DNA of 32,000 nt from Candidatus Baldrarchaeota archaeon (GCA_019056805.1 DXJG01000001.1:150001-182000); one strand, 5' to 3'. Shown: positions 15,825-27,130, counted from the first letter of the stretch. The notes: a model not told the origin generated them from the sequence alone. Made by a program: numbers and translations.

Positions 15825-17822
15825 CTAAATGTTTATAGAGAATTCTAATATTTTCCGTTTACGCACTACTATAAAAATCCCTAATAGACAAGGTATACTA
15901 ATTATCTTCAAAAAATCTTTTAAAAAGGAATAAATATTTCTTGACGGTAAAACTTCGATTTCTATTCTCTTCAAAGAGGCTCCATAGAAATCCGAGCCGT
16001 TGTATTTGAACATAACTACTATTATAGCTGGTTCGGAAGGCATTTTCAATTTTACAATTACTTTTCCATCGTTGTTTGTTTTCACAGTATTTAATAATGA
16101 ATCATTAAGATAGACAGACAATTTTTCAAATTTCAACGGCATTCCTTCAATAGTTTGGAGAGTAACTTCACAAATTATGATTTCTTCGATTTTTACCCGT
16201 CTTGGTATATTTAGGATTAATTCAGTTGGTATCTTCTCAACAATTCTATAAATTACGTAATTTTCTGCATTTAAAAGATATTGTTCTGGGTTTCCTAAAT
16301 ACGTCACTTTTATTATTAATTGACCGAAAACAGCATTACTTGGAATAATATATGTTATTGTAGCTTTTCCTAAATCATCTGTAGTGACGTTTCCTATGTA
16401 TAAGTGATTGGTTATGTCGTAAGCATGTATGACTTTTCCTTGTAGGGGATCGTTTTGTAAAGTTTTAAGTTGAACGAAAAAAGATATCTGCATACTTCTA
16501 GCTACAAGAGTGATGTTATTTTCTTTTTTAACGACAAGATTTGGACGTTCGAAGACTAATATTGGAACTTTTAGCATAGTTGAATCATAAAATTCATCGC
16601 CTGGGAAATTGATCGTGATGAATGAGGGACCTTTAGCTTGAGAGACGTACCACTGTATTGTGGCGCATCCATTATCATTTGTGATTGTACTAGTCAGCAA
16701 GTTTCCTTGACTATCAAAAACTAACAATTCTCTAAATGGTACAGGATCGTTTTGGTCATCAAGAAGGGTAACATTTAATTTTGTTATTTCTCCACTAATT
16801 ACCGTTACATTACTGAAACAAAAATCGATATACGTAATACCTCTTATCGTAAGCGTAACATTTCTTTCCGCGTTTTCATACCTTGGACTACCAGCAAAAG
16901 AAACTGTATAAACATATTCTCCCGGGTCTGTATAGTTTGGTATATAAATAATAGCTTCAAAAAAACCAGTAGCATTTGTCCATGCTGAAGAGACGTTTCC
17001 TTTTTCATTTTTTACATAAATTGCGGCATTAACCAGAGGATCACCTTTTTCATCTACTAGTTTCCCTGTTATTGTTACAGTTTGGTTTCTATAAGCCACT
17101 TCGGGTTTTATTTCTAACATTGTTATATTAGTTTTTATTTTTCGAATATTAAGCGCTATAATACATGTACTTTTTTCGTAATACTGATAGGGACCAGCTT
17201 GAATAGTTAGTTCAATTTTTCCTTCAGAAGTTTTTGGCGAAGGTATATATCTTAAAACCGTCTCTCCTTTTTCGTTAGTAAATTGTTGATCAATTATCTT
17301 TTCTCCTTCTATTAACGATACATTTATTGCTTTTACGGGTTCTCCTACATCGTCTGTGACAGTAACATTAATAACAACTTCATCTCCTGGAGCCACTGTC
17401 TGATCATAAGGGTCTAAAGTCGTATCAGTCACTAAAATAGTTAGGTAGGTTTTTCCCATGACCGTCAAATAAAACACTTGATACGAAGGACTTAGGTTTT
17501 TAGCAAGATTTCCTCGGAAAGTTGCATTTAACACAAGTTGACCTGGAGAATAACTTTTTGGCACAGTCCATGATATTTGTGCAATTCCATTGTCATTTGT
17601 TACCGCTTCTCCTATGTACATGTTATGAGTTTCATCGTAGAAATATATCGTTTCGTTTACAACTGGTTCTCCTAAATCATCCTCTAAGGTTGCAGTAAGA
17701 GTAAGAGTCTGACCTCTATAGACAATAATTTCCTGACTTTGTGCATTTAGGACATTGAAGGAAAAATAACATAAAAGTATCACTAAGATAGCTAACGAGG
17801 CGATGATAAATACCCTTTTCAC
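15825..17822 (-). CDS. Secreted, C-terminally anchored surface protein with about 6 tandem Ig-like (Big) repeats
   Basis: N-terminal signal peptide; repeated TL.D..G.P....I.......G...T...G.A units of about 100 aa ending in F.G...Y; C-terminal TM followed by VRKRK. Confidence 0.8.
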   Translation of the reverse strand: MKRVFIIASLAILVILLCYFSFNVLNAQSQEIIVYRGQTLTLTATLEDDLGEPVVNETIYFYDETHNMYIGEAVTNDNGIAQISWTVPKSYSPGQLVLNATFRGNLAKNLSPSYQVFYLTVMGKTYLTILVTDTTLDPYDQTVAPGDEVVINVTVTDDVGEPVKAINVSLIEGEKIIDQQFTNEKGETVLRYIPSPKTSEGKIELTIQAGPYQYYEKSTCIIALNIRKIKTNITMLEIKPEVAYRNQTVTITGKLVDEKGDPLVNAAIYVKNEKGNVSSAWTNATGFFEAIIYIPNYTDPGEYVYTVSFAGSPRYENAERNVTLTIRGITYIDFCFSNVTVISGEITKLNVTLLDDQNDPVPFRELLVFDSQGNLLTSTITNDNGCATIQWYVSQAKGPSFITINFPGDEFYDSTMLKVPILVFERPNLVVKKENNITLVARSMQISFFVQLKTLQNDPLQGKVIHAYDITNHLYIGNVTTDDLGKATITYIIPSNAVFGQLIIKVTYLGNPEQYLLNAENYVIYRIVEKIPTELILNIPRRVKIEEIIICEVTLQTIEGMPLKFEKLSVYLNDSLLNTVKTNNDGKVIVKLKMPSEPAIIVVMFKYNGSDFYGASLKRIEIEVLPSRNIYSFLKDFLKIISIPCLLGIFIVVRKRKILEFSINI

Positions 17823-18390: not shown

Positions 18391-19092
18391 ATGTCGACTG
18401 AAATCATCCGAGGAGTTCCTCCCACTAGAAACTTAGGGTGTCTAAAACTGGCACCCTAAGCTAGAATGGAACTCCTCATCCTTAGAAGGCGAAAAATTCT
18501 TGCAGAAAAAGGTAGAGATTTACTTGAAGAAAAAAGGGACGCTTTAATTATGGAATTTCGAGACGTTTTGGAAAGAACATATAAACTACGGAACGAAGCT
18601 AACAAAAGTTTAGAAGAGGCGTTTAAGGAATTATCAGAAGTAAAAATGCTTATGGGACCTTTAATGATCGAAGAAATTGCGAGTAACATTCCTTCAACAT
18701 TAGAACTCGAAGTAAAAACGAGGAATATAATGGGAGTCAGAGTACCAATTTTGAGGGTTAAAGAAAAACAAAACGAAGAACCTGTGCTTTATAGTTTCAT
18801 CGATACTTCTTCCAAACTTGATACAGCCATTAAAAAATTTAGAAACGCCCTGAGAGCAATCTTAAGACTGGCGGAAACAGAAGGAGCTGTTAGAAGGTTG
18901 GCAGAAGAAATAAAAAAGACAAAAAGAAGAGTTAACGCCTTAAAATACGTAATTATTCCTAAGATAGAAAACACGATAAAATATATTGAATTTTACCTTG
19001 AGGAAATGGAAAGAGAAGACTTCTTTAGGCTCAAGCGAATTAAGAGTTTATTGGAAAGAAAAGCAGGAGAACGTATTAAAGCATCAACTTAA
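18391..19092 (+). CDS. atpD: A/V-type ATP synthase subunit D, intron-split: join(18391..18430,18467..19092), 221 aa
   Basis: ATG at 18391 with GGTGGTGA upstream. Removing 36 nt gives MSTEIIRGVPPTRMELLILRRRK, restoring the conserved P-T-R-M-E-L N-terminal motif. C-terminal TKRRVNALKYVIIP is present. Confidence 0.9.
18431..18466 (+). other. Predicted 36-nt bulge-helix-bulge/loop mRNA intron in atpD
   Basis: Central helix CUAG(18425-28)/CUAG(18461-64); bulges AA^A and AA^U; 11-bp intron stem (18432-42 with 18450-60); 10-bp exon-exon stem (18410-19 with 18468-77); in-frame TAA at 18457-59. Confidence 0.85.
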
Positions 19093-19110
19093 TTTTTTAT
19101 TATCAAGTAA

Positions 19111-19476
19111 TTATGTGTTTTTTGATGATTTTAGCAGTAAAATTGCCTGTGCTAAGTCTCCGCCAGTTTGTTCTAAAGCTTTTTTTGCGTCATCAATACT
19201 GACTCCTGCTTGAGCAGCAACTAGTTGAATGTCCTCCATAGGTATCTCTAATTTCTCTTCCTTTGTCTCTATTGGCCGTTGCTCAGCCTCTCCGAGGACT
19301 TGATAAAGATCCTGTCCACTAACTTTCATTAAAGTTACTTGCGGATTCCTAATAATAATTTCATTATCACTCAGCCTTATTATTACTTCTTTTACTCCAG
19401 CAAGTTCCTGTATTTTTATTCCCATTTGCTTCATGAGTTTTTTCATCATTTTTGGGCTCATTCGTCGAGGGATCAT
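19111..19476 (-). CDS. nac: Nascent polypeptide-associated complex protein (archaeal NAC)
   Basis: KKLMKQMGIK, EVIIR and NPQV motifs; C-terminal UBA domain EDIQLVAAQAGVS...GDLAQAI; GGAGGT ribosome-binding site. Confidence 0.95.
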   Translation of the reverse strand: MIPRRMSPKMMKKLMKQMGIKIQELAGVKEVIIRLSDNEIIIRNPQVTLMKVSGQDLYQVLGEAEQRPIETKEEKLEIPMEDIQLVAAQAGVSIDDAKKALEQTGGDLAQAILLLKSSKNT

Positions 19477-19488
19477 ATTTCGTACCTC

Positions 19489-20706
19489 CTAGCCATACAT
19501 GTCATTTTCAACTCTGGATGTCTTTTCGTTTTTTCTCTTTAAAACTTTATCAATTGCTTTTAGAAAATCAGAAAATGTAACTTTGACTCTTCGTTCTCTT
19601 ATGGCGAAAACTCCAGCTTCAGTACAGATAGCTTTAATATCTGCTCCAGTAGCACCTTCTGTTATTTTTGCCAATTCCCTTAACTCCACATCACTGGCGA
19701 GATTCATCTTCCTTGTGTGTATCTGAAAGATTTCTAATCTACCTTGTTGATTGGGAAGAGGAAACTCTATTATTCTATCAAATCTTCCAGGCCTTAACAA
19801 AGCTGGATCTAACATATCAGGTCTATTTGTTGCAGCCAAAATTCTAACATCACCTCTGGCGTCAAATCCATCTAAGGTACTAAGAAGCTGCATTAATGTT
19901 CTTTGTACTTCTTTATCACCACTAGTTGTTACATCGTATCTCTTTGAACCGATTGCATCTATTTCATCTATAAATACTATACTTGGCGCTTTTTTCTGTG
20001 CTAAGTGAAATATTTCCCTTACTAATCTGGCACCTTCTCCAATGTATTTTTGAACGAGTTCCGACCCTATTACCCTTATGAAAGTAGCTTTCGTCTCGTG
20101 AGCAACTGCTCTGGCAACTAAAGTTTTACCAGTTCCAGGAGGCCCACAGAAAAGGACCCCTTTCGGCGGGTCAATTCCAACTTTCTCAAAAAGCTCGGGA
20201 TGAGTTAGGGGTAACTCCACACACTCCTTAACTTCTCTTAGTTGCTCATGTAATCCTCCAATATCGTTATAAGTTACAGGCGGTGATTCTTCTACCTCCA
20301 TTCCCCTTACAAATGGGTCATATGATGGTGGAAGGACTTCAACAACAGCAAAAGTTCTCTGATTTAAAGCAACTCTAACTCCAGGATGAATTTTTTCACG
20401 TGGCACCATCGGAGATACATGAACCACAAAGTTCGGACCTGTAGAACTTTTAACTATCACTCTACCATCAGAAAGAATTTCGGTAACCGTTGCGGCAATT
20501 AAAGGTGGATACTTTAATCTTTCAATCTCCATTCTTAAAGCATTCAATTCTCTCTCTAAACGCACTTTTTCTGCGTCCAGTAATTGTTTTTCGGTTTCAA
20601 GCATTCTTAATCGTCTTTCTAAATGCTTCGTATAGCTAAGAAGATAGGAAATATCTTCATCGTCAACATATATCCTTTTTTTGGACTCAGTTGAGTTTGG
20701 CAACAA
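19489..20706 (-). CDS. pan: Proteasome-activating nucleotidase
   Basis: N-terminal coiled coil, OB domain, [29 protein letters not shown], and C-terminal HbYX motif MYG. Confidence 0.96.
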
Positions 20707-20718
20707 TGTCCCTCCGTC

Positions 20719-20750
20719 GAAGTTATAAGAAGTTCAAGTCCCTATATATT
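20719..20750. promoter_or_regulatory. Divergent BRE-TATA promoters for mbf1 (+) and pan (-)
   Basis: GGAAGTTATAAG on the plus strand (20719-20730) and AAGAATATATAG on the minus strand within the 73-bp gap. Confidence 0.4.
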
Positions 20751-20779
20751 CTTGTCGTGGTTTTGGGGGCGTCACAAAT

Positions 20780-21292
20780 TTGAGATGTGAAATCTGTGGA
20801 CGAAAAATCCAAGGCACACCTAAGCATATAATCGTAGAAGGCGCCAAACTAGTTGTATGCAAAATTTGTGCTAAATTTGGATCAGAAACTCCAGTAGCTA
20901 CTACGCAAAGCAAAATTTCAACAAAAAGAACACTAAAAATTCCTAAAAAACCGGTTCAAAGAAGGGTAAAATACATATCAAAGCCCATAATGTTTGAAGA
21001 AGACTACGAACTAGTAGAAAACTTTGGAGAAAAAGTTAAAAAAGCAAGAGAAAAATTAGGATGGAAACAAGAAGACCTAGCAAGAGAAATTAAAGAAAAA
21101 GAATCAATAATAAGTAAAATTGAAACTATGGAAATAACGCCACCACTAAATACAATTAAGAAACTAGAAAAAGTTCTAAACATAAAACTTACAGTACCAG
21201 CATCCAAAATATCCGAAACCCCACCACTATCTACAAAGGAGCCATCTTTAACTCTAGGAGATGCCATAATACTTAAAAAGAAGAAAAAATAA
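20780..21292 (+). CDS. mbf1: Archaeal multiprotein bridging factor aMBF1
   Basis: N-terminal Zn ribbon CEICG..VCKICAKFG, Cro-type HTH, and C-terminal LTLGD motif. Confidence 0.95.
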   Translation: MRCEICGRKIQGTPKHIIVEGAKLVVCKICAKFGSETPVATTQSKISTKRTLKIPKKPVQRRVKYISKPIMFEEDYELVENFGEKVKKAREKLGWKQEDLAREIKEKESIISKIETMEITPPLNTIKKLEKVLNIKLTVPASKISETPPLSTKEPSLTLGDAIILKKKKK

Positions 21293-21303
21293 ATGGTGAT
21301 ACA

Positions 21304-22569
21304 ATGAAAGCTTTACTTGTCGAAGTAATTCAGTCCGCCAACGATAGTAGACTGGAAGAATTCAAAGAACTCGCAAAAGCAGCTGGCTATGAAATAGAAG
21401 GAGTCTTACAGCAAATACGAAACTCACCAGATCCAGCCTATTGCTTGGGAAAAGGAAAAGCCGAAGAACTCGCACAACTGGCAAAAATGCTAAAACCAGA
21501 CAAAATAATCTTTAACAAAGAATTAAAACCAAATCAAACAATAAATTTAGAGAACTTGACTAAAACAGAAGTTATCGATAGAATCCAACTTATTCTTGAA
21601 ATATTCACAAAAAGAGCAGGTACAAAAGAAGCTAAACTTCAAATAGAATTAGCAAAACTAAAGTACCTTCTTCCCAAACTAAAAATGTATGTCAAATACA
21701 CGAAAAAGGAAGAATTCCCAGGATTTCACGGCCCAGGATACTACCAAACAGCTAAGTATGAAAGAATGATCAGAAAAAGAATAGCTAAAATAGAAAGAGA
21801 ACTTGAAAAAATTAGGTATGAAAGAGAAGAGAGAAGAAAAATTAGACGAGAACTTGGATTTTCACTTGTAGCTTTAGCCGGATATAGCAATGCAGGAAAA
21901 TCCACTCTACTAAATAGACTAACGAAATCAAATGTTCCAGCAGATGATAGGCTATTCACTACTCTAGGCACATACACTAGATTTGCATACTTTAATGGCA
22001 AAAAAGTTCTTATAAGCGATACAATAGGATTTGTTGAAAATTTACCACATTTGGTCATTGAGGCATTTAAATCGACATTAGAAGAAATCACATTAGCCGA
22101 TTTAATTATACTGGTTGTTGATGCAAGTGAACCATTACATGAGATAGAAAGGAAGATAAAAACAGCTAACGACGTCTTGGAGGAGGTTGGTGCGACAGGA
22201 AAACCGGTTCTCATGGCTTTAAATAAAATAGATAAAATTTCCTCAGAAGAAATCAAAGAAAAAGTATCAAAATTAGAAGGACTTGCGCAGGATATTGTTC
22301 CCATCTCGGCGCTATATGGTTATAATCTAGATAAGTTATCTATTAAAGCAGAACAACTTCTACCAAAATATGTTAAAATAGAAGCTCACATACCTTTAAA
22401 ACAAGATGCCGGTCTTTTAATTTCACATATATACAACAGAGGAAATGTTAAACAAGTTGTATATTTTAACGATGAAATTAAAATGCAGTTCGAAGTATTA
22501 CCACATACATCCGAATATTTCAGAAAAATCATAGAAAGAGCTGGTGGAACATTAGAAATCATGCAATGA
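21304..22569 (+). CDS. hflX: GTPase HflX
   Basis: LILEIF..RA..KEAKLQIELA, GYSNAGKS, LFTTL, DTIGF and NKID motifs. Confidence 0.96.
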   Translation: MKALLVEVIQSANDSRLEEFKELAKAAGYEIEGVLQQIRNSPDPAYCLGKGKAEELAQLAKMLKPDKIIFNKELKPNQTINLENLTKTEVIDRIQLILEIFTKRAGTKEAKLQIELAKLKYLLPKLKMYVKYTKKEEFPGFHGPGYYQTAKYERMIRKRIAKIERELEKIRYEREERRKIRRELGFSLVALAGYSNAGKSTLLNRLTKSNVPADDRLFTTLGTYTRFAYFNGKKVLISDTIGFVENLPHLVIEAFKSTLEEITLADLIILVVDASEPLHEIERKIKTANDVLEEVGATGKPVLMALNKIDKISSEEIKEKVSKLEGLAQDIVPISALYGYNLDKLSIKAEQLLPKYVKIEAHIPLKQDAGLLISHIYNRGNVKQVVYFNDEIKMQFEVLPHTSEYFRKIIERAGGTLEIMQ

Positions 22570-22579
22570 ATTGCCTATT

Positions 22580-23140
22580 TCAGGTTTTTAAAACTTTTTT
22601 ACCCTTTGCAGAAGGAACTATTCTAATTTTTGCATTCTTAAACTCAAATTTAAATTCTTTTCCTTTCCAAAGTTCATGAAGGAAAACAGCAAGGGCAGCC
22701 ACTTCGCTATGCGGTTGATTAGTAATTGAAACGTTCCAATCAGCTAGCTCAAAAATCCATGCTGGAACTTTTTCTGCTCCGACAACAATAAGTTTATCTT
22801 TTTTTGACTTCCTTATTTTCTCTATTACGTTAGGTAGAGGAAGACCGTACATTGTTAAGTGAATAATTTCTCCACCTTTTGCTCTCCATTCTTCTATGAT
22901 CTTCCTTGCAGAAACTCCAATTTCTACGTGAAACGAGCCGCCCCAGGTCATTACAACCTTTTCTAAGGATTTTTTCACGTTTTCATCCTTTTCACCAGCA
23001 ATGTAAATTCCGTTAGCGCCAAAGGCCCTACTAACCAAACCAACATGAGTGGTAATTCTTCTATCTCTTTCAATTCGATGACCTAAGCGTAAAACATATA
23101 TGGTATAAGTTTTATTTCCCAAATTGAAGCAAACCTCCAT
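22580..23140 (-). CDS. trm56: tRNA (cytidine(56)-2'-O)-methyltransferase
   Basis: [40 protein letters not shown] and [14 protein letters not shown] motifs. Confidence 0.95.
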
Positions 23141-23309
23141 ACTTTATGTATTATATTGAAATGTTAGTTACCAGTTGAGGCTTAGTTGGAAATTCAGTTT
23201 TCTATCTTTTTAACATTTAGATACTTTGTTGTGTTAAATGTAAAGATTTATACTGATAATCTCCTTAAGTTAATTTGAAACATGGAGAGAGAGCGGAGTA
23301 GCAATAACG

Positions 23310-23879
23310 ATGAAAAACAACGAAGTGGTGCAATTAATGCATGAAAAAGTGCAAAAACAGTCAAAGAAAACTAAGAACGATGTGTTTGTATCAGTGGTCG
23401 AAGAACTAGTTGGAGAAGATGCTGTAAACGTAGCTATGGCACTTTCAAAAAGAAAGGAGGCTACAGATGAAGAAATATCCCAAGAAACAGGTATAAGGCT
23501 AAATGACGTGAGAAAAATTCTTTATAAACTTCATAATTTTAATTTGGCTACATATCGTCGAATAAGGGATGATAGTACTGGGTGGTTTACATATTTCTGG
23601 CAGATAAACAAAGAAAGAGTTTATGATCTCATAAAAAGTAGAAAAAAACTTGTTTTAGAAAAATTAAAAGAAAGATTGGAATACGAAAAAAGTAAGATGT
23701 TCTTTTATTGCCCTAATGATGGGGACGCCAGGCTAACATTCGAAGAAGCTATGGAAAGTTCTTTTAAATGCCCAAAGTGTGGAAATGTACTTCAACATTT
23801 TGATAATTCCGAAATAATAAAAATATTGGAAGAAAAAATTAGAGAACTGGAAGAGGAGATGGACAGTACATCTAAGTAA
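23310..23879 (+). CDS. tfe: Transcription factor E alpha
   Basis: wHTH TDEEIS..VRKILYKL, GWFTYFW, Zn ribbon FxCP..FKCPKCG. ATG at 23337 with GTGGTG upstream is an alternative start. Confidence 0.95.
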   Translation: MKNNEVVQLMHEKVQKQSKKTKNDVFVSVVEELVGEDAVNVAMALSKRKEATDEEISQETGIRLNDVRKILYKLHNFNLATYRRIRDDSTGWFTYFWQINKERVYDLIKSRKKLVLEKLKERLEYEKSKMFFYCPNDGDARLTFEEAMESSFKCPKCGNVLQHFDNSEIIKILEEKIRELEEEMDSTSK

Positions 23880-23901
23880 CGTCGATCATGGAAGTGAAAA
23901 A

Positions 23902-24702
23902 ATGCCAATCCACTCAGTAATTTTACTAGAAAAAATTTATGGGCCCAATAAAGAAATTGCAATTAAGGCATTTCATCACATAGCAGCAAGCCTAGTAAGG
24001 GACTTAAACGTGAAAATAATAGGAATAGAGAAAGATGTTAAGGGATGGATAAAAGTTACTCTAAACGGGGAGGACGCTGAAGCCGCAAAAAACTATCTAG
24101 CTAAGGAATTTTATTCAACAGTTTTAATTAATCAGCTTAAAAATGGAGATATCAGAAAAGGAAAGCTCATAGATGTGGAAAAATACGGCTACGGTATATA
24201 CATAGATATTGGTGTTATTTCTCCCCGTCCAAAAGACGCTCTAATACCTCTGTATGTTTTAAGAAAACAATTAGCAAATAATCATAAAGTATCTACAAGA
24301 CAAATAATTAAAAAATACGCTTTTATGGATAACTTACCATTAGAAGTAAAAATAATAGATGTCGACGAACGATTTGATACAATTGAAGTAGAATTAAGTG
24401 AAAATCAAATAAAAAAATACAAAAAATGGATTAATCAGGGGTTAGATAGAATAATCATCTGCGGAGCCACCAGACAAATGGTTAGAAAAGCGATAATAAA
24501 ATCAGGACATTTACAAGACATTCTAAGTATCGAAAGACTAGGACTTTTAGAACACACTGTTGTATGCAAACCTGGCACCACAGCACAAGGACTTATAGCA
24601 GAAATAGGAAAGTATTTACCAAAAATCCCGATGAAAGCATTTAAACCAAAAGAAATCAAGAAATGGCTAGAACAACTAGAAAATATAAACAAAAAATTGT
24701 AA
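23902..24702 (+). CDS. DUF2110 family protein
   Basis: YGYGIYIDIG and LPLEV motifs; occupies the usual archaeal position downstream of tfe. Confidence 0.75.
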   Translation: MPIHSVILLEKIYGPNKEIAIKAFHHIAASLVRDLNVKIIGIEKDVKGWIKVTLNGEDAEAAKNYLAKEFYSTVLINQLKNGDIRKGKLIDVEKYGYGIYIDIGVISPRPKDALIPLYVLRKQLANNHKVSTRQIIKKYAFMDNLPLEVKIIDVDERFDTIEVELSENQIKKYKKWINQGLDRIIICGATRQMVRKAIIKSGHLQDILSIERLGLLEHTVVCKPGTTAQGLIAEIGKYLPKIPMKAFKPKEIKKWLEQLENINKKL

Positions 24703-24767
24703 AGTTAAAGTACTCAAACTAGCAAAGAATTTTTACAATAAATAAATTGTGGACTTAAAAGTGATAT

Positions 24768-24876
24768 TGGTGGGCCCGCCGGGATTTGAACCCGGGACTT
24801 CCGCCGTGTGAGGGCGGCGTCATAGCCGGGTTACCCAACGGAAGCTTATTTTCTTCCATTTCTAGACCACGGGCCC
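24768..24876 (-). tRNA. tRNA-Val(CAC) with a 31-nt D-loop intron at position 15/16 (24831..24861); CCA encoded
   Basis: Acceptor stem GGGCCCG/CGGGCCC, anticodon arm CCGCC-CTCACAC-GGCGG, T loop TTCAAAT. Removing 31 nt gives a 78-nt cloverleaf with D loop AGCCCGGCTA. Confidence 0.9.
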
Positions 24877-24920
24877 AAATACATTTCCTACAGTATTTAA
24901 GTATAAATTTTTCTATCTAG

Positions 24921-25385
24921 TTACTTCAAGAACTTTTTTAGCTCATAGAGAACAACAGCTGCCACGCCTATTGGCCCTATATCCTCAGCAACGTCTAATG
25001 AAACGGTTTTTCCAAGATCCATCTCTTTCTTTGATAATCCCGGTTCACTACCGCCGAACACAAACAAAATTTTTCTCTCTTCCTTTAGTTTATTAGCAAT
25101 CTTAGTGGGATCATAAGTATCCTTGGCAAATCGTGGTGGAACAAAAACGTAAATTTCATCCGGTTTTAATAATTCAATTACATCAGGTAAGTCTGGAAAA
25201 CAAAGTAGAGACTTTTTTTGTCTATACATAATTTTTTGTGCTTCAGGAATACCGGAAACAGCCGCTGCGCCTTCAGCTTTAGAAATTATGAGCGATTTTA
25301 AACCAAAACCGATTGCAAGTTTAGCCATATCCTTTACCCTTTGAATACTGTGAACGTTGTGTAAAACCACAAAAAGTTGATCCAT
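24921..25385 (-). CDS. Archaeal SPOUT-class RNA methyltransferase-like protein (COG4080-type, often labelled RecB-family nuclease)
   Basis: VVLHNVHS.QR..DMAK, GAAA.SGIPEAQK and VFGGSEPGL motifs. Confidence 0.75.
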   Translation of the reverse strand: MDQLFVVLHNVHSIQRVKDMAKLAIGFGLKSLIISKAEGAAAVSGIPEAQKIMYRQKKSLLCFPDLPDVIELLKPDEIYVFVPPRFAKDTYDPTKIANKLKEERKILFVFGGSEPGLSKKEMDLGKTVSLDVAEDIGPIGVAAVVLYELKKFLK

Positions 25386-25422
25386 TATCGTTCCTCCTCA
25401 AATTTGAATTAACAATTACAAA

Positions 25423-26391
25423 TTATTCACTTGATTTTTCTACTAAAAACTTTTTGACTTCACAAGCAATTACACGAGCTAGAACAACGGGAACGGCTTC
25501 ACCTACCTCTTCGTACTGTACAGATCTACCTCCAAAAAATACGTGATCATCTGGAAAACTCATCAAACGAGCATGCTCCCGCACTGTTAAAAAACGATCT
25601 TCGAAAGGGTGAATAAATCTAGAATTGCCTAAAACGGTTGGAGCAACCCTATAGGGATGTAATCTAGTCCAATTAGTAAAAATTTTTCCTCTTGCACCTC
25701 TATAAAAGATAAGAGACTCCCCCCACCTAAGGGAAGCTATTTTCTTCCTTTTTCGTCTAGGTATGGGATGCCATTCATGATTAGGTACATCGTGTACACC
25801 TTCAGGATCTGGTAAGTCACCGATAGCCTCAATAACTGTAACCTTTTTCTTTACTGGCTTTGGAGAGAGTTTTATGTTAGAAATAAACAATCTTGAACGC
25901 CTAGAAGGATTACCGTATCTTTCAGCTCTTAAAAGATTAAAATATATTTTTGAATACCCTACTCGTTCAAACTCTTTTTTTATTGCATCTTTTAAAGGGC
26001 CCTCAATAATTTGAGGGACATTTTCCATAACAAATACCTTTGGTCTTAAATCACCAACAAAACGAATAAAACTTAATGTAAGTCTCCCAATAGGATCTTT
26101 ATAAAGCCTATCTAGGGGATTTTCTAGTCTTTTAATATTGGCGGCTGTAAAGGGTTCACAAGGAGGCGAACCTATAATAACATCGGGTTCTTTACCGATA
26201 AAACCCAAAAAGTCGATAGGATGAATATTTTTTATGTCTTCAACAATTAAAGTTGTATTTGGAAAATTGTAACGATACGTTTCAGCTACGGGTGGAAAAT
26301 TATCTATTGCTCCCACAACTTCGAAGTCCTCATCTACAAAGCCGCGAGAAAAACCACCAGCACCACAAAACAGATCATAAACTCTAAACAT
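25423..26391 (-). CDS. C5 cytosine DNA methyltransferase (Dcm family, orphan)
   Basis: Motif I DLFCGAGG, motif IV GSPPC, motif VI ENV, motif IX RFLTVREHARLMSFPD. ATG at 26391 has GAGGTG upstream; the ORF-track extension to 26457 overlaps the tRNA. Confidence 0.88.
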   Translation of the reverse strand: MFRVYDLFCGAGGFSRGFVDEDFEVVGAIDNFPPVAETYRYNFPNTTLIVEDIKNIHPIDFLGFIGKEPDVIIGSPPCEPFTAANIKRLENPLDRLYKDPIGRLTLSFIRFVGDLRPKVFVMENVPQIIEGPLKDAIKKEFERVGYSKIYFNLLRAERYGNPSRRSRLFISNIKLSPKPVKKKVTVIEAIGDLPDPEGVHDVPNHEWHPIPRRKRKKIASLRWGESLIFYRGARGKIFTNWTRLHPYRVAPTVLGNSRFIHPFEDRFLTVREHARLMSFPDDHVFFGGRSVQYEEVGEAVPVVLARVIACEVKKFLVEKSSE

Positions 26392-26413
26392 ATATTCCAC
26401 CTCAAAATTAGGG

Positions 26414-26564
26414 TGGCGCCGGGGGTGGGATTTGAACCCACGCGGCACAACGGCCACGGGCTATCCACCCCTAGGATAGCAGGCTTGAGCCCGCGAAGGA
26501 AACTATAGCGGACCGCTCCCTACCAGGTTCCCCGGAGATCTATTATCCTCTAGGATACCCCGGC
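26414..26564 (-). tRNA. tRNA-Ser(GCT) with three introns: 15/16 (26528..26549), 29/30 (26485..26512) and 37/38 (26463..26476); CCA encoded
   Basis: Acceptor stem GCCGGGG/CCCCGGC, discriminator G, long variable arm. Removing 22+28+14 nt gives an 87-nt tRNA with anticodon arm CGGGC-CTGCTAA-GCCCG. Each intron has BHB geometry. Confidence 0.88.
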
Positions 26565-26780
26565 ATTCTTTAATTAGATAAATGTGCGTCTTCCTTATTT
26601 ATTATTTTCTAAGTTATTAATAGTGATTAATCAAAGAGCATGTTACTATACATAGTGGGTTTTTTAATTTTTGGAACAATAAGTCAAGTAACGGTTTAAT
26701 AGAGATTTTGATAAATAGATCATAAATCAAGTAATATTCTTTAAATTTCAATAATATAGATAATTTTGAAAAGAATTAAA

Positions 26781-27130
26781 GCGGCCGCGGCCCCCTTGGG
26801 TGGATACCTTTCCCGATCGCGGTGTTTCAGCCCCCAGTCTCTACTCCGCACCCCCGTGAGCGCCGAACGTCCGGGGTTAGGTTGCTCCTTCGGGTGGACA
26901 GTAACACTCTCCATCTCCCGGGCCTGGCCTGGTTCCCCCGGTAAGGGTCGTAGTACTCCCGCCTAAGCGGGAGACCCGACCGCCGCCGACCCCACGGGAC
27001 GGAGTTTCATCGCTGTGAGGCTAAATCCTGCGATCGGGGTTAGGTATCGCCCCTTGGGTTACTGGCCCCGCCATAAACCGGGTTTGCGGTTACAGGAAAC
27101 CGGTAACTTCCCGGCCCTACCCGCGGCCGC
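26781..27130 (-). ncRNA. ffs: Signal recognition particle 7S RNA containing a 26-nt BHB intron
   Basis: 10-bp terminal helix GCGGCCGCGG/CCGCGGCCGC; Alu domain with UGUAA motif and complementary loops ACCGG/CCGGU; long helix 5; helix 6; helix-8 signature CCAGG...AGCAA; T-rich tract downstream. Confidence 0.93.
26889..26914 (-). other. Predicted BHB intron at the SRP RNA helix-8 tetraloop
   Basis: Central helix CGGG/CCCG, bulges AG^A and AA^G, intron stem UGGA/UCCA. Excision gives CAGG-CCC-GGGA-GGG-AGCAA. Confidence 0.85.

Follow-up and report, generated by a model that had tools for sequence, protein, structure and literature searches.

Six short insertions that interrupt a protein-coding gene, an RNA gene of the signal recognition particle (SRP) and two tRNA genes in an Asgard archaeon are very probably bulge-helix-bulge (BHB) introns of the archaeal, protein-spliced type. 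They lie in a stretch of 32,000 nucleotides (nt) from a genome of Candidatus Baldrarchaeota archaeon (G000; C6:150001-182000), hereafter called the window; coordinates count from its first letter unless another contig is named. A first-pass annotation, made from the sequence alone, had described six insertions of 14-36 nt, and all six were present: 36 nt in atpD (A/V-type ATP synthase subunit D), 26 nt in the SRP RNA, 22, 28 and 14 nt in tRNA-Ser, and 31 nt in tRNA-Val. Judged from the DNA, cut-and-rejoin splicing of RNA appears to belong to the routine of gene expression in this organism.

A central helix of 4 bp with 3-nt bulges on opposite strands was found at all six sites, and a cut after the second base of each bulge yielded the sequence encoded by intron-less relatives for AtpD, the SRP RNA and the tRNA-Ser D loop, and complete tRNAs according to ARAGORN; the cut rule proposed in the first-pass annotation thus held. 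Given the base composition, a 4-bp helix in the required register has a chance probability of about 0.02 at each site. In atpD, the SRP RNA and the tRNA-Ser D loop the boundaries are set by intron-less orthologues, independently of the motif, and the agreement therefore exceeds chance. Of 21 orthologous copies, 19 have the central helix intact (4 of 4 pairs) and two have 3 of 4 pairs. Among three congeners, exons, central helix and bulges are invariant, the loops vary, and the inner stem of the tRNA-Val intron has been swapped. The helix that adjoins the central helix on the outer side differs between sites, with 7 bp in tRNA-Ser intron a (strict hBHBh'), just 1-2 pairs in the introns of SRP RNA, tRNA-Val and tRNA-Ser b, and none in atpD and tRNA-Ser c; the latter two (intron c being that of the D loop) belong to the relaxed HBh' type rather than to strict hBHBh'. 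Contigs from other runs and studies span the introns of atpD (X2, X3) and of the SRP RNA (X2, X3, X5) with 0 indels, and these insertions are not the assembly artefact that the annotation had allowed for. No significant second copy of any of the six introns was found in the genome (a 16-nt match had an E-value of 0.009), so that recent transposition is without support.

The host genome is a metagenome-assembled genome of 1.92 Mb in 18 contigs (91% complete, 3.6% contamination, 35% G+C). Its RNA genes stand out as G+C-rich islands from the A+T-rich DNA around them, consistent with a thermophile, and the host fits a heat-loving Asgard archaeon (Baldrarchaeia). The closest relatives in the genome collection were Yap30.bin4.67 (Candidatus Baldrarchaeota, same genus) and Candidatus Baldrarchaeum yapensis (same order; G004); Atabeyarchaeia, Jordarchaeia, Freyarchaeia and Odinarchaeia are more remote. 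Three congeners of the host were compared (G001, G002 and G003, which differ in the gene set they hold), together with, among others, G015 and G025 (Atabeyarchaeia), G030 (labelled Jordarchaeum madagascariense) and G005, a complete, intron-poor genome of Odinarchaeia type that served as reference for junction homology.

The features of the interrupted atpD gene are the following, all on the plus strand:

18391-18430 (+), atpD exon 1, encoding MSTEIIRGVPPTR plus the first base of Met14, with the Shine-Dalgarno-like site GGTGGTGA upstream
18412-18419 (+), 5' strand of a distal exon-exon helix (GGAGTTCC), pairing with 18468-18475 (GGAACTCC)
18425-18428 and 18461-18464 (+), central helix, CTAG/CTAG
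18429-18431 and 18465-18467 (+), bulges, AAA and AAT
18431-18466 (+), putative BHB intron, 36 nt, phase 1, with an in-frame TAA
18432-18441 and 18451-18460 (+), inner stem of the intron, 10-11 bp
18467-19092 (+), atpD exon 2, A/V-type ATP synthase subunit D (Pfam ATP-synt_D, 221.9 bits, profile positions 1-196)

Without splicing, the frame that starts at ATG 18391 reads MSTEIIRGVPPTR, continues with NLGCLKLAP and stops, and a second ATG at 18466 opens a frame of 208 codons (MELLILRRRK...) whose product aligns with the full length of the Pfam ATP-synt_D profile; this model begins just past the junction and is therefore silent on exon 1. Removal of 18431-18466 joins AGA-A to TG-GAA and gives ...GVPPTR-MELL..., corresponding to the ..GV(H/K/Q)(P/A)TR-MEL.. 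of 17 other Asgard atpD genes, which are uninterrupted, that of the same-order Baldrarchaeum included. The gene is single-copy, and nothing comparable to the Shine-Dalgarno-like site before ATG 18391 precedes ATG 18466. An insert of 36 nt stands at the same place in G000, G001 and G003 (both congeners that hold the gene); in G001 and G003 the 10 + 15 bases of stem, helix and bulges are identical and the 11-base apex alone differs. Over the last ten codons of exon 1, these three genomes differ by four synonymous and zero non-synonymous changes. The intron was absent from the 17 non-congeneric relatives compared and was found within the genus only. When 66 bases around the break were folded, the BHB shape was the minimum-free-energy structure (91% of the ensemble, z = -5.4) and consisted of the inner stem, the CUAG/CUAG helix with bulges AAA and AAU, and the distal helix GGAGUUCC/GGAACUCC. 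As the computed fold begins at 18415, it contains five of the eight distal pairs, the others being read from the sequence; a 5-nt asymmetric loop (UCCCA) sets this 8-bp helix off from the central helix. The spliced mRNA would read ..ACTAGAA|TGGAAC.. (predicted exon junction ..CCCACTAGAA|TGGAACTCC..) and would encode full-length subunit D (..GVPPTR-MELL..), and GVPPTRMELLILR is among the predicted junction peptides.

Elsewhere in the genome, a 16-nt stretch at C10:45545-45560 matches part of the atpD intron exactly, and a 67-nt BHB-like candidate, not validated, lies nearby at C10:44562-44628 (CTAG/CTAG, bulges AAA and AAA).

For the SRP RNA, the following features were located on the minus strand:

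26784-27127 (-), SRP RNA gene, colinear (Rfam RF01857, 168.5 bits, model positions 1-317)
26889-26914 (-), putative intron in the apical loop of helix 8, 26 nt
26917-26920 and 26891-26894 (-), central helix, CGGG/CCCG
26914-26916 and 26888-26890 (-), bulges, AGA and AAG, with inner stem UGGA/UCCA

The gene is not permuted, as the Rfam model was matched in order from 1 to 317, and 28 bases at the place of the helix-8 tetraloop find no partner in the archaeal SRP model. After removal of 26889-26914 the sequence is GCCCGGGAG|GGAGCA, identical to that of five intron-less genomes (G004, G008, G011, G014, G024), whose loop is GGGA. The congeners G001 and G002 carry inserts of 24 and 26 nt with the helix and bulges of G000 and different loops. 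Unrelated inserts of 18, 24 and 30 nt, with the same AGA bulge, occupy the same phosphodiester bond in G010, G020 and G030, which represent at least two other Asgard families; the insert of G010 is relaxed (3 of 4 central-helix pairs), and those of G020 and G030 keep the geometry of G000. In spliced SRP RNA, helix 8 would end in a GGGA tetraloop, with the predicted junction ..CCCGGGAG|GGAGCA.. (also written ..GGCCCGGGAG|GGAGCAACC..).

Other SRP RNAs showed further irregularities. That of G027 has a BHB-shaped insert of 31 nt nine bases upstream, in the 5' strand of helix 8 (GGCC/GGCU, bulges AGU and AAG). The SRP RNAs of G014, G015, G024 and G025 contain 15-16 extra nt in an Alu-domain helix beside a repeated GGCTAG, and these may be further SRP intron sites. 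The tRNA-Ser(GCU)-SRP RNA pair (window 26414-27127, minus strand) is syntenic in G000, G001, G002, G004, G015 and G025, with about 30-220 nt between the two genes.

The two interrupted tRNA genes, also on the minus strand, and their four putative introns are:

24768-24876 (-), tRNA-Val(CAC), CCA encoded; 78-nt tRNA-Val(cac) in ARAGORN after removal of the intron
24831-24861 (-), tRNA-Val D-loop intron, 31 nt, position 15/16, GUCU/GGGU, bulges AGA and AAC, inner stem of 8 bp
26414-26564 (-), tRNA-Ser(GCU), CCA encoded, three introns; 87-nt tRNA-Ser(gct) in ARAGORN after their removal
26528-26549 (-), tRNA-Ser intron c, 22 nt, position 15/16, UCCU/GGGG, bulges AGA and AAC
26485-26512 (-), tRNA-Ser intron a, 28 nt, position 29/30 in the anticodon stem, GAGC/GCUC, bulges GGU and AAG
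26463-26476 (-), tRNA-Ser intron b, 14 nt, canonical position 37/38, CUGC/GUGG, bulges UAU and AUA

From the unspliced precursors, ARAGORN and Rfam returned a distorted, partial tRNA-Val and no tRNA-Ser; after splicing, both tRNA-Ser(GCU) and tRNA-Val(CAC) would form normal cloverleaves. The exons of tRNA-Val are identical in G001 and G002, and the inner stem of its intron has been replaced there by an unrelated complementary pair (AUGGAAG/CUUCCGU versus ACGGGU/ACCCGU). The boundaries of tRNA-Ser intron c are fixed by the syntenic gene of G004, which is without a D-loop intron and reads UCCUAG|CCUGGUA contiguously; the spliced D loop is AGCCUGGUA. In G015 and G025 an unrelated insert occupies the same bond as intron c. 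Intron b sits at 37/38 by canonical tRNA numbering, which independently confirms the cut after the second bulge base. Across the whole genome, at least 17 of 27 matches to tRNA models span 90-191 nt, i.e., are intron-bearing, and several others are partial, so that standard tools under-call the tRNA set.

The splicing enzymes that the first-pass annotation had presupposed are encoded in the host genome. Two EndA genes were identified, each with N- and C-terminal endonuclease domains: alpha (C9:197884-198129, 184 aa) has a Tyr/His/Lys triad, and beta (C9:13779-14039, 178 aa) is without the His and looks, by sequence, like the structural subunit. The alignment of EndA alpha with the catalytic alpha subunit of Aeropyrum pernix EndA (3P1Z_B, E = 1e-44) has no gaps, the specificity-loop region included. 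Its stretch GIRKPKAPSFNKP corresponds to the crenarchaeal specificity loop (CSL/L1) and is a 10-residue gap against the EndA of Methanopyrus, which is without the loop. RtcB (C9:161691-162998, 608 bits) and archease are encoded as well. By homology, the host EndA is thus of the crenarchaeal alpha+beta type, predicted to form (alpha-beta)2 with the specificity loop. This architecture with an L1 loop has been reported for Asgard and TACK archaea and is the type that cuts relaxed motifs (PMC5829648). Orthologue-defined boundaries together with the genes for EndA, RtcB and archease support the annotation's proposal that tRNAs, SRP RNA and mRNA of one lineage would share endonuclease-type introns.

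The annotation had further suggested that many genes may be mis-annotated as truncated or as pseudogenes, and the splitting of other genes in this way is borne out by the genome: 12 coding-sequence introns in 9 protein genes, atpD included, were recorded by homology, pairing of tblastn matches and inspection. The number is a lower bound, as the census covers genes with an Odinarchaeia homologue and introns with a 4-bp central helix only. The introns lie in aIF5B (33 nt), PCMT (31 nt), an unnamed gene at C17:157669-159007 (22 nt), atpD (36 nt), porG (35 nt), glyA (three introns of 28, 26 and 29 nt), kae1 (17 nt), pyrG (32 nt) and fbp (49 nt). Four downstream exons begin in the middle of a Pfam domain, at profile position 68 of GTP_EFTU (aIF5B), 61 of PCMT, 33 of POR (porG) and 42 of CTP_synth_N (pyrG).

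Because motif counts and tests for the restoration of open reading frames (ORFs) carried no signal, homology to G005 was used, with a strong motif and a BLOSUM score of at least 30 on each side of the junction given by the BHB rule as the criterion. Nine sites passed, versus one and zero in controls in which the 3' cut was shifted by one base. ORF-restoration tests without homology gave equal counts for true and shifted cuts, since operon junctions and chance open frames dominate these counts, and loose homology thresholds were uninformative against the controls. Pairing of tblastn matches without reference to the motif recovered four to seven sites, short exons escaping detection. One candidate, C9:254247-254277, was rejected, as it was seen in the shifted-cut controls only and was not intron-like on inspection. 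The cbf5 gene (TruB_N, C10:25410-25751) is uninterrupted in this genome, forming one 364-aa open frame without stops.

The aIF5B intron of Baldrarchaeia sits between EAGGI and TQHIGA (predicted junction peptide EAGGITQHIGA) and is common to G000 and Baldrarchaeum yapensis, where it measures 30 nt (helix GGCA/UGCU) and has a compensated inner stem. A different, relaxed BHB intron of 29 nt lies inside the P-loop (GHIDHGK|T) of aIF5B in G010 and G020, and G021 has a 32-nt, stop-containing insert at the P-loop site, whose BHB geometry was not confirmed by eye. Introns thus occupy two to three positions in aIF5B across three Asgard families. The atpD intron found in the genus alone, the wider distribution of the aIF5B intron and the varying aIF5B sites indicate that introns were gained at different times and places.

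A processing route can be proposed from these features. The last four bases of exon 1 would pair with the last four intron bases ahead of the 3' bulge, leaving a 3-nt bulge on each strand; the heterotetrameric (alpha-beta)2 EndA would cut after the second base of each bulge, and RtcB with archease would ligate the exons and probably circularise the intron. The same system would interrupt at least eight further protein genes in G000.

Several points weigh against this interpretation. We infer excision and ligation in vivo from DNA comparison and the enzyme repertoire, and likewise the timing of splicing relative to translation and the circularisation of introns. The strict BHB motif is no commoner in the genome than in its mirror image (the reversed sequence) at any score threshold; by itself the motif is therefore no evidence and is unfit for counting introns. 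The absence of an adjoining outer helix in atpD and the tRNA-Ser D-loop intron means that relaxed-motif recognition is needed, which is presumed for the host enzyme. The atpD intron has a length divisible by three and is bordered on both sides by the repeat CTAGAA, so that a translational hop or a start at 18466 could give a usable protein. The weakest link is consequently the annotation's statement that ATP synthesis depends on splicing: as ATG 18466 is present in unspliced RNA and could give subunit D minus 13 N-terminal residues, that part was overstated. The mid-domain introns elsewhere in the genome have no such escape.

These points bear on three other explanations. If the insertions outside the tRNAs were tolerated and never removed, the SRP insert would be a lineage-specific extension of helix 8, translation from ATG 18466 would give AtpD minus its first 13 residues, and the hairpin upstream would be a leader or regulatory element. 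The availability of that start codon, the variable length of SRP RNA among Asgard genomes and the fact that excision rests on inference and not on RNA all agree with this. We nevertheless consider it quite unlikely, since exon 1 keeps the N-terminal motif of the family under purifying selection and has the sole Shine-Dalgarno-like site, and the SRP insert takes the place of the tetraloop at the helix-8 tip, with boundaries that reproduce the exact intron-less sequence and with unrelated inserts of the same geometry there in other families. Moreover, frame-breaking inserts of 17-35 nt within domains of other genes would be intolerable if unspliced. Still less probable is that ribosomes skip the atpD gap in a bypass of the T4 gene 60 type, from take-off at AGA to the identical AGA 36 nt downstream. 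Matched AGA codons do surround an in-frame 36-nt gap that opens with a stable hairpin, but the codon after take-off is AAC and not a stop, and the repeat on either side follows from the CTAG helix being self-complementary. SRP RNA and tRNAs, which are not translated, share the BHB geometry and cannot be explained by bypassing, and in coding sequences with inserts of 17, 22, 26, 28, 29, 31, 32 and 35 nt the BHB cut rule alone restores the frame.

We give least credence to the view that the insertions are footprints of decaying mobile elements or assembly errors and the interrupted genes pseudogenes. Short direct repeats beside the atpD insert and the nature of the genome, which was assembled from a metagenome with the completeness and contamination given above, speak in its favour. 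Against it, the same inserts recur in contigs from independent studies and in three to four species whose exons are intact; atpD, SRP RNA and aIF5B are single-copy essentials, and the genome contains no paralogues of the introns. BHB introns therefore remain the preferred explanation for all six insertions.

Parts of this arrangement have precedents. The cbf5 pre-mRNA of Crenarchaeota contains a BHB intron (Watanabe 2002; Yoshinari 2006; Yokobori 2009, PMC2738675) that, like those described here, is short, breaks the frame of a coding sequence and is processed, before ligation, by an EndA that is hetero-oligomeric and carries the crenarchaeal specificity loop. It concerns one gene per genome in Crenarchaeota, whereas the present Asgard host has at least 12 introns in nine housekeeping genes, none of them cbf5. 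A 2020 study listed cbf5 and its own case in a 5' untranslated region (UTR), HVO_1309 of Haloferax volcanii, as the known mRNA BHB introns (PMC7714728); HVO_1309 likewise makes an mRNA a substrate of the archaeal splicing endonuclease, but its intron lies in the untranslated leader and is a single case per genome, and those found here are in coding sequence. Thermoproteales, Freyarchaeia, Jordarchaeia and Atabeyarchaeia likewise have tRNA genes with more than one intron, often in the D arm, relaxed in motif and missed by standard finders. The published accounts of tRNA-intron richness in Freyarchaeia, Atabeyarchaeia and Jordarchaeia treat tRNA genes only and include no Baldrarchaeia, mRNA or SRP RNA (PMC11291895; bioRxiv 10.64898/2026.10.13.758758).

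In Thermoproteus tenax and T. uzoniensis the SRP RNA is permuted and circularised, with gene termini at the helix-8 tip, and the loop is restored by splicing endonuclease and ligation; a simple-BHB-intron ancestor was proposed for these permuted genes by Plagens 2015 (PMC4731332). As the first-pass annotation had said, this permuted form is the only BHB processing of SRP RNA in the literature searched, in which no description of a plain SRP RNA intron was found. The likeness lies in BHB processing at the helix-8 tip that restores the apical loop; the difference is that the Thermoproteus gene is permuted and its RNA circular, whereas the gene examined here is colinear with a plain 26-nt intron and its product is expected to be linear. 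Read from its sequence, the gene would be in the simple-intron state postulated by Plagens et al., with its intron at the exact site where Thermoproteus ligates the permuted SRP RNA.

HAC1/XBP1 mRNA of eukaryotes is cleaved by IRE1 and ligated by Trl1 in yeast and by RtcB in metazoans (in part PMC8718801). It resembles the present case in a short mRNA intron independent of the spliceosome, a protein endonuclease, RtcB-type ligation and a change of frame, and differs in that IRE1 recognises other stem-loop signals and acts under stress regulation, whereas EndA would act here with no sign of regulation.

What stands out is the number of BHB introns in coding sequences of one genome, against cbf5 and one 5' UTR in the literature searched. 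No further Asgard mRNA BHB introns were found in that literature, which was searched without subscription-only papers, so that priority may lie elsewhere. The 12 or more mRNA introns lie in genes of translation (aIF5B, kae1), energy conversion (atpD, porG), central metabolism (glyA, fbp, pyrG) and protein repair (PCMT). Gene callers will list such Asgard genes as truncated, split or missing, and estimates of completeness as well as reconstructions of metabolism are biased as a result. Introns in coding sequences appear to be tolerated and propagated, by means of the tRNA-splicing machinery, in the archaea most closely related to eukaryotes, and a related cut-and-ligate route is still used by HAC1/XBP1 mRNA in eukaryotes; how splicing and translation coexist without a nucleus becomes directly testable.

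It is conceivable, though at present we would rather doubt it than assume it, that mRNA splicing by EndA and RtcB is a general and obligatory layer of expression in several Asgard classes (Baldrarchaeia, Jordarchaeia-like and others), with tens of coding-sequence introns per genome and repeated gain at different sites. If so, the cells would need to keep ribosomes off unspliced transcripts, and this would be a prokaryotic precedent for the parting of RNA processing from translation before eukaryotes arose.

Among the neighbouring genes of the window, atpD stands apart from other ATP-synthase genes. Upstream of it, at 15825-17822 on the minus strand, lies the gene for a 665-aa protein with Big_3_5, Big_1, CarboxypepD_reg and macroglobulin-type domains; this product with Ig-like domains is probably a surface protein. 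Two genes are located between the intron-bearing tRNA genes, both on the minus strand: a C-5 cytosine DNA methyltransferase (25423-26390; Pfam, 159.9 bits), which starts just past the 3' end of tRNA-Ser, and after it a DUF2122/SPOUT-like protein (24921-25385).

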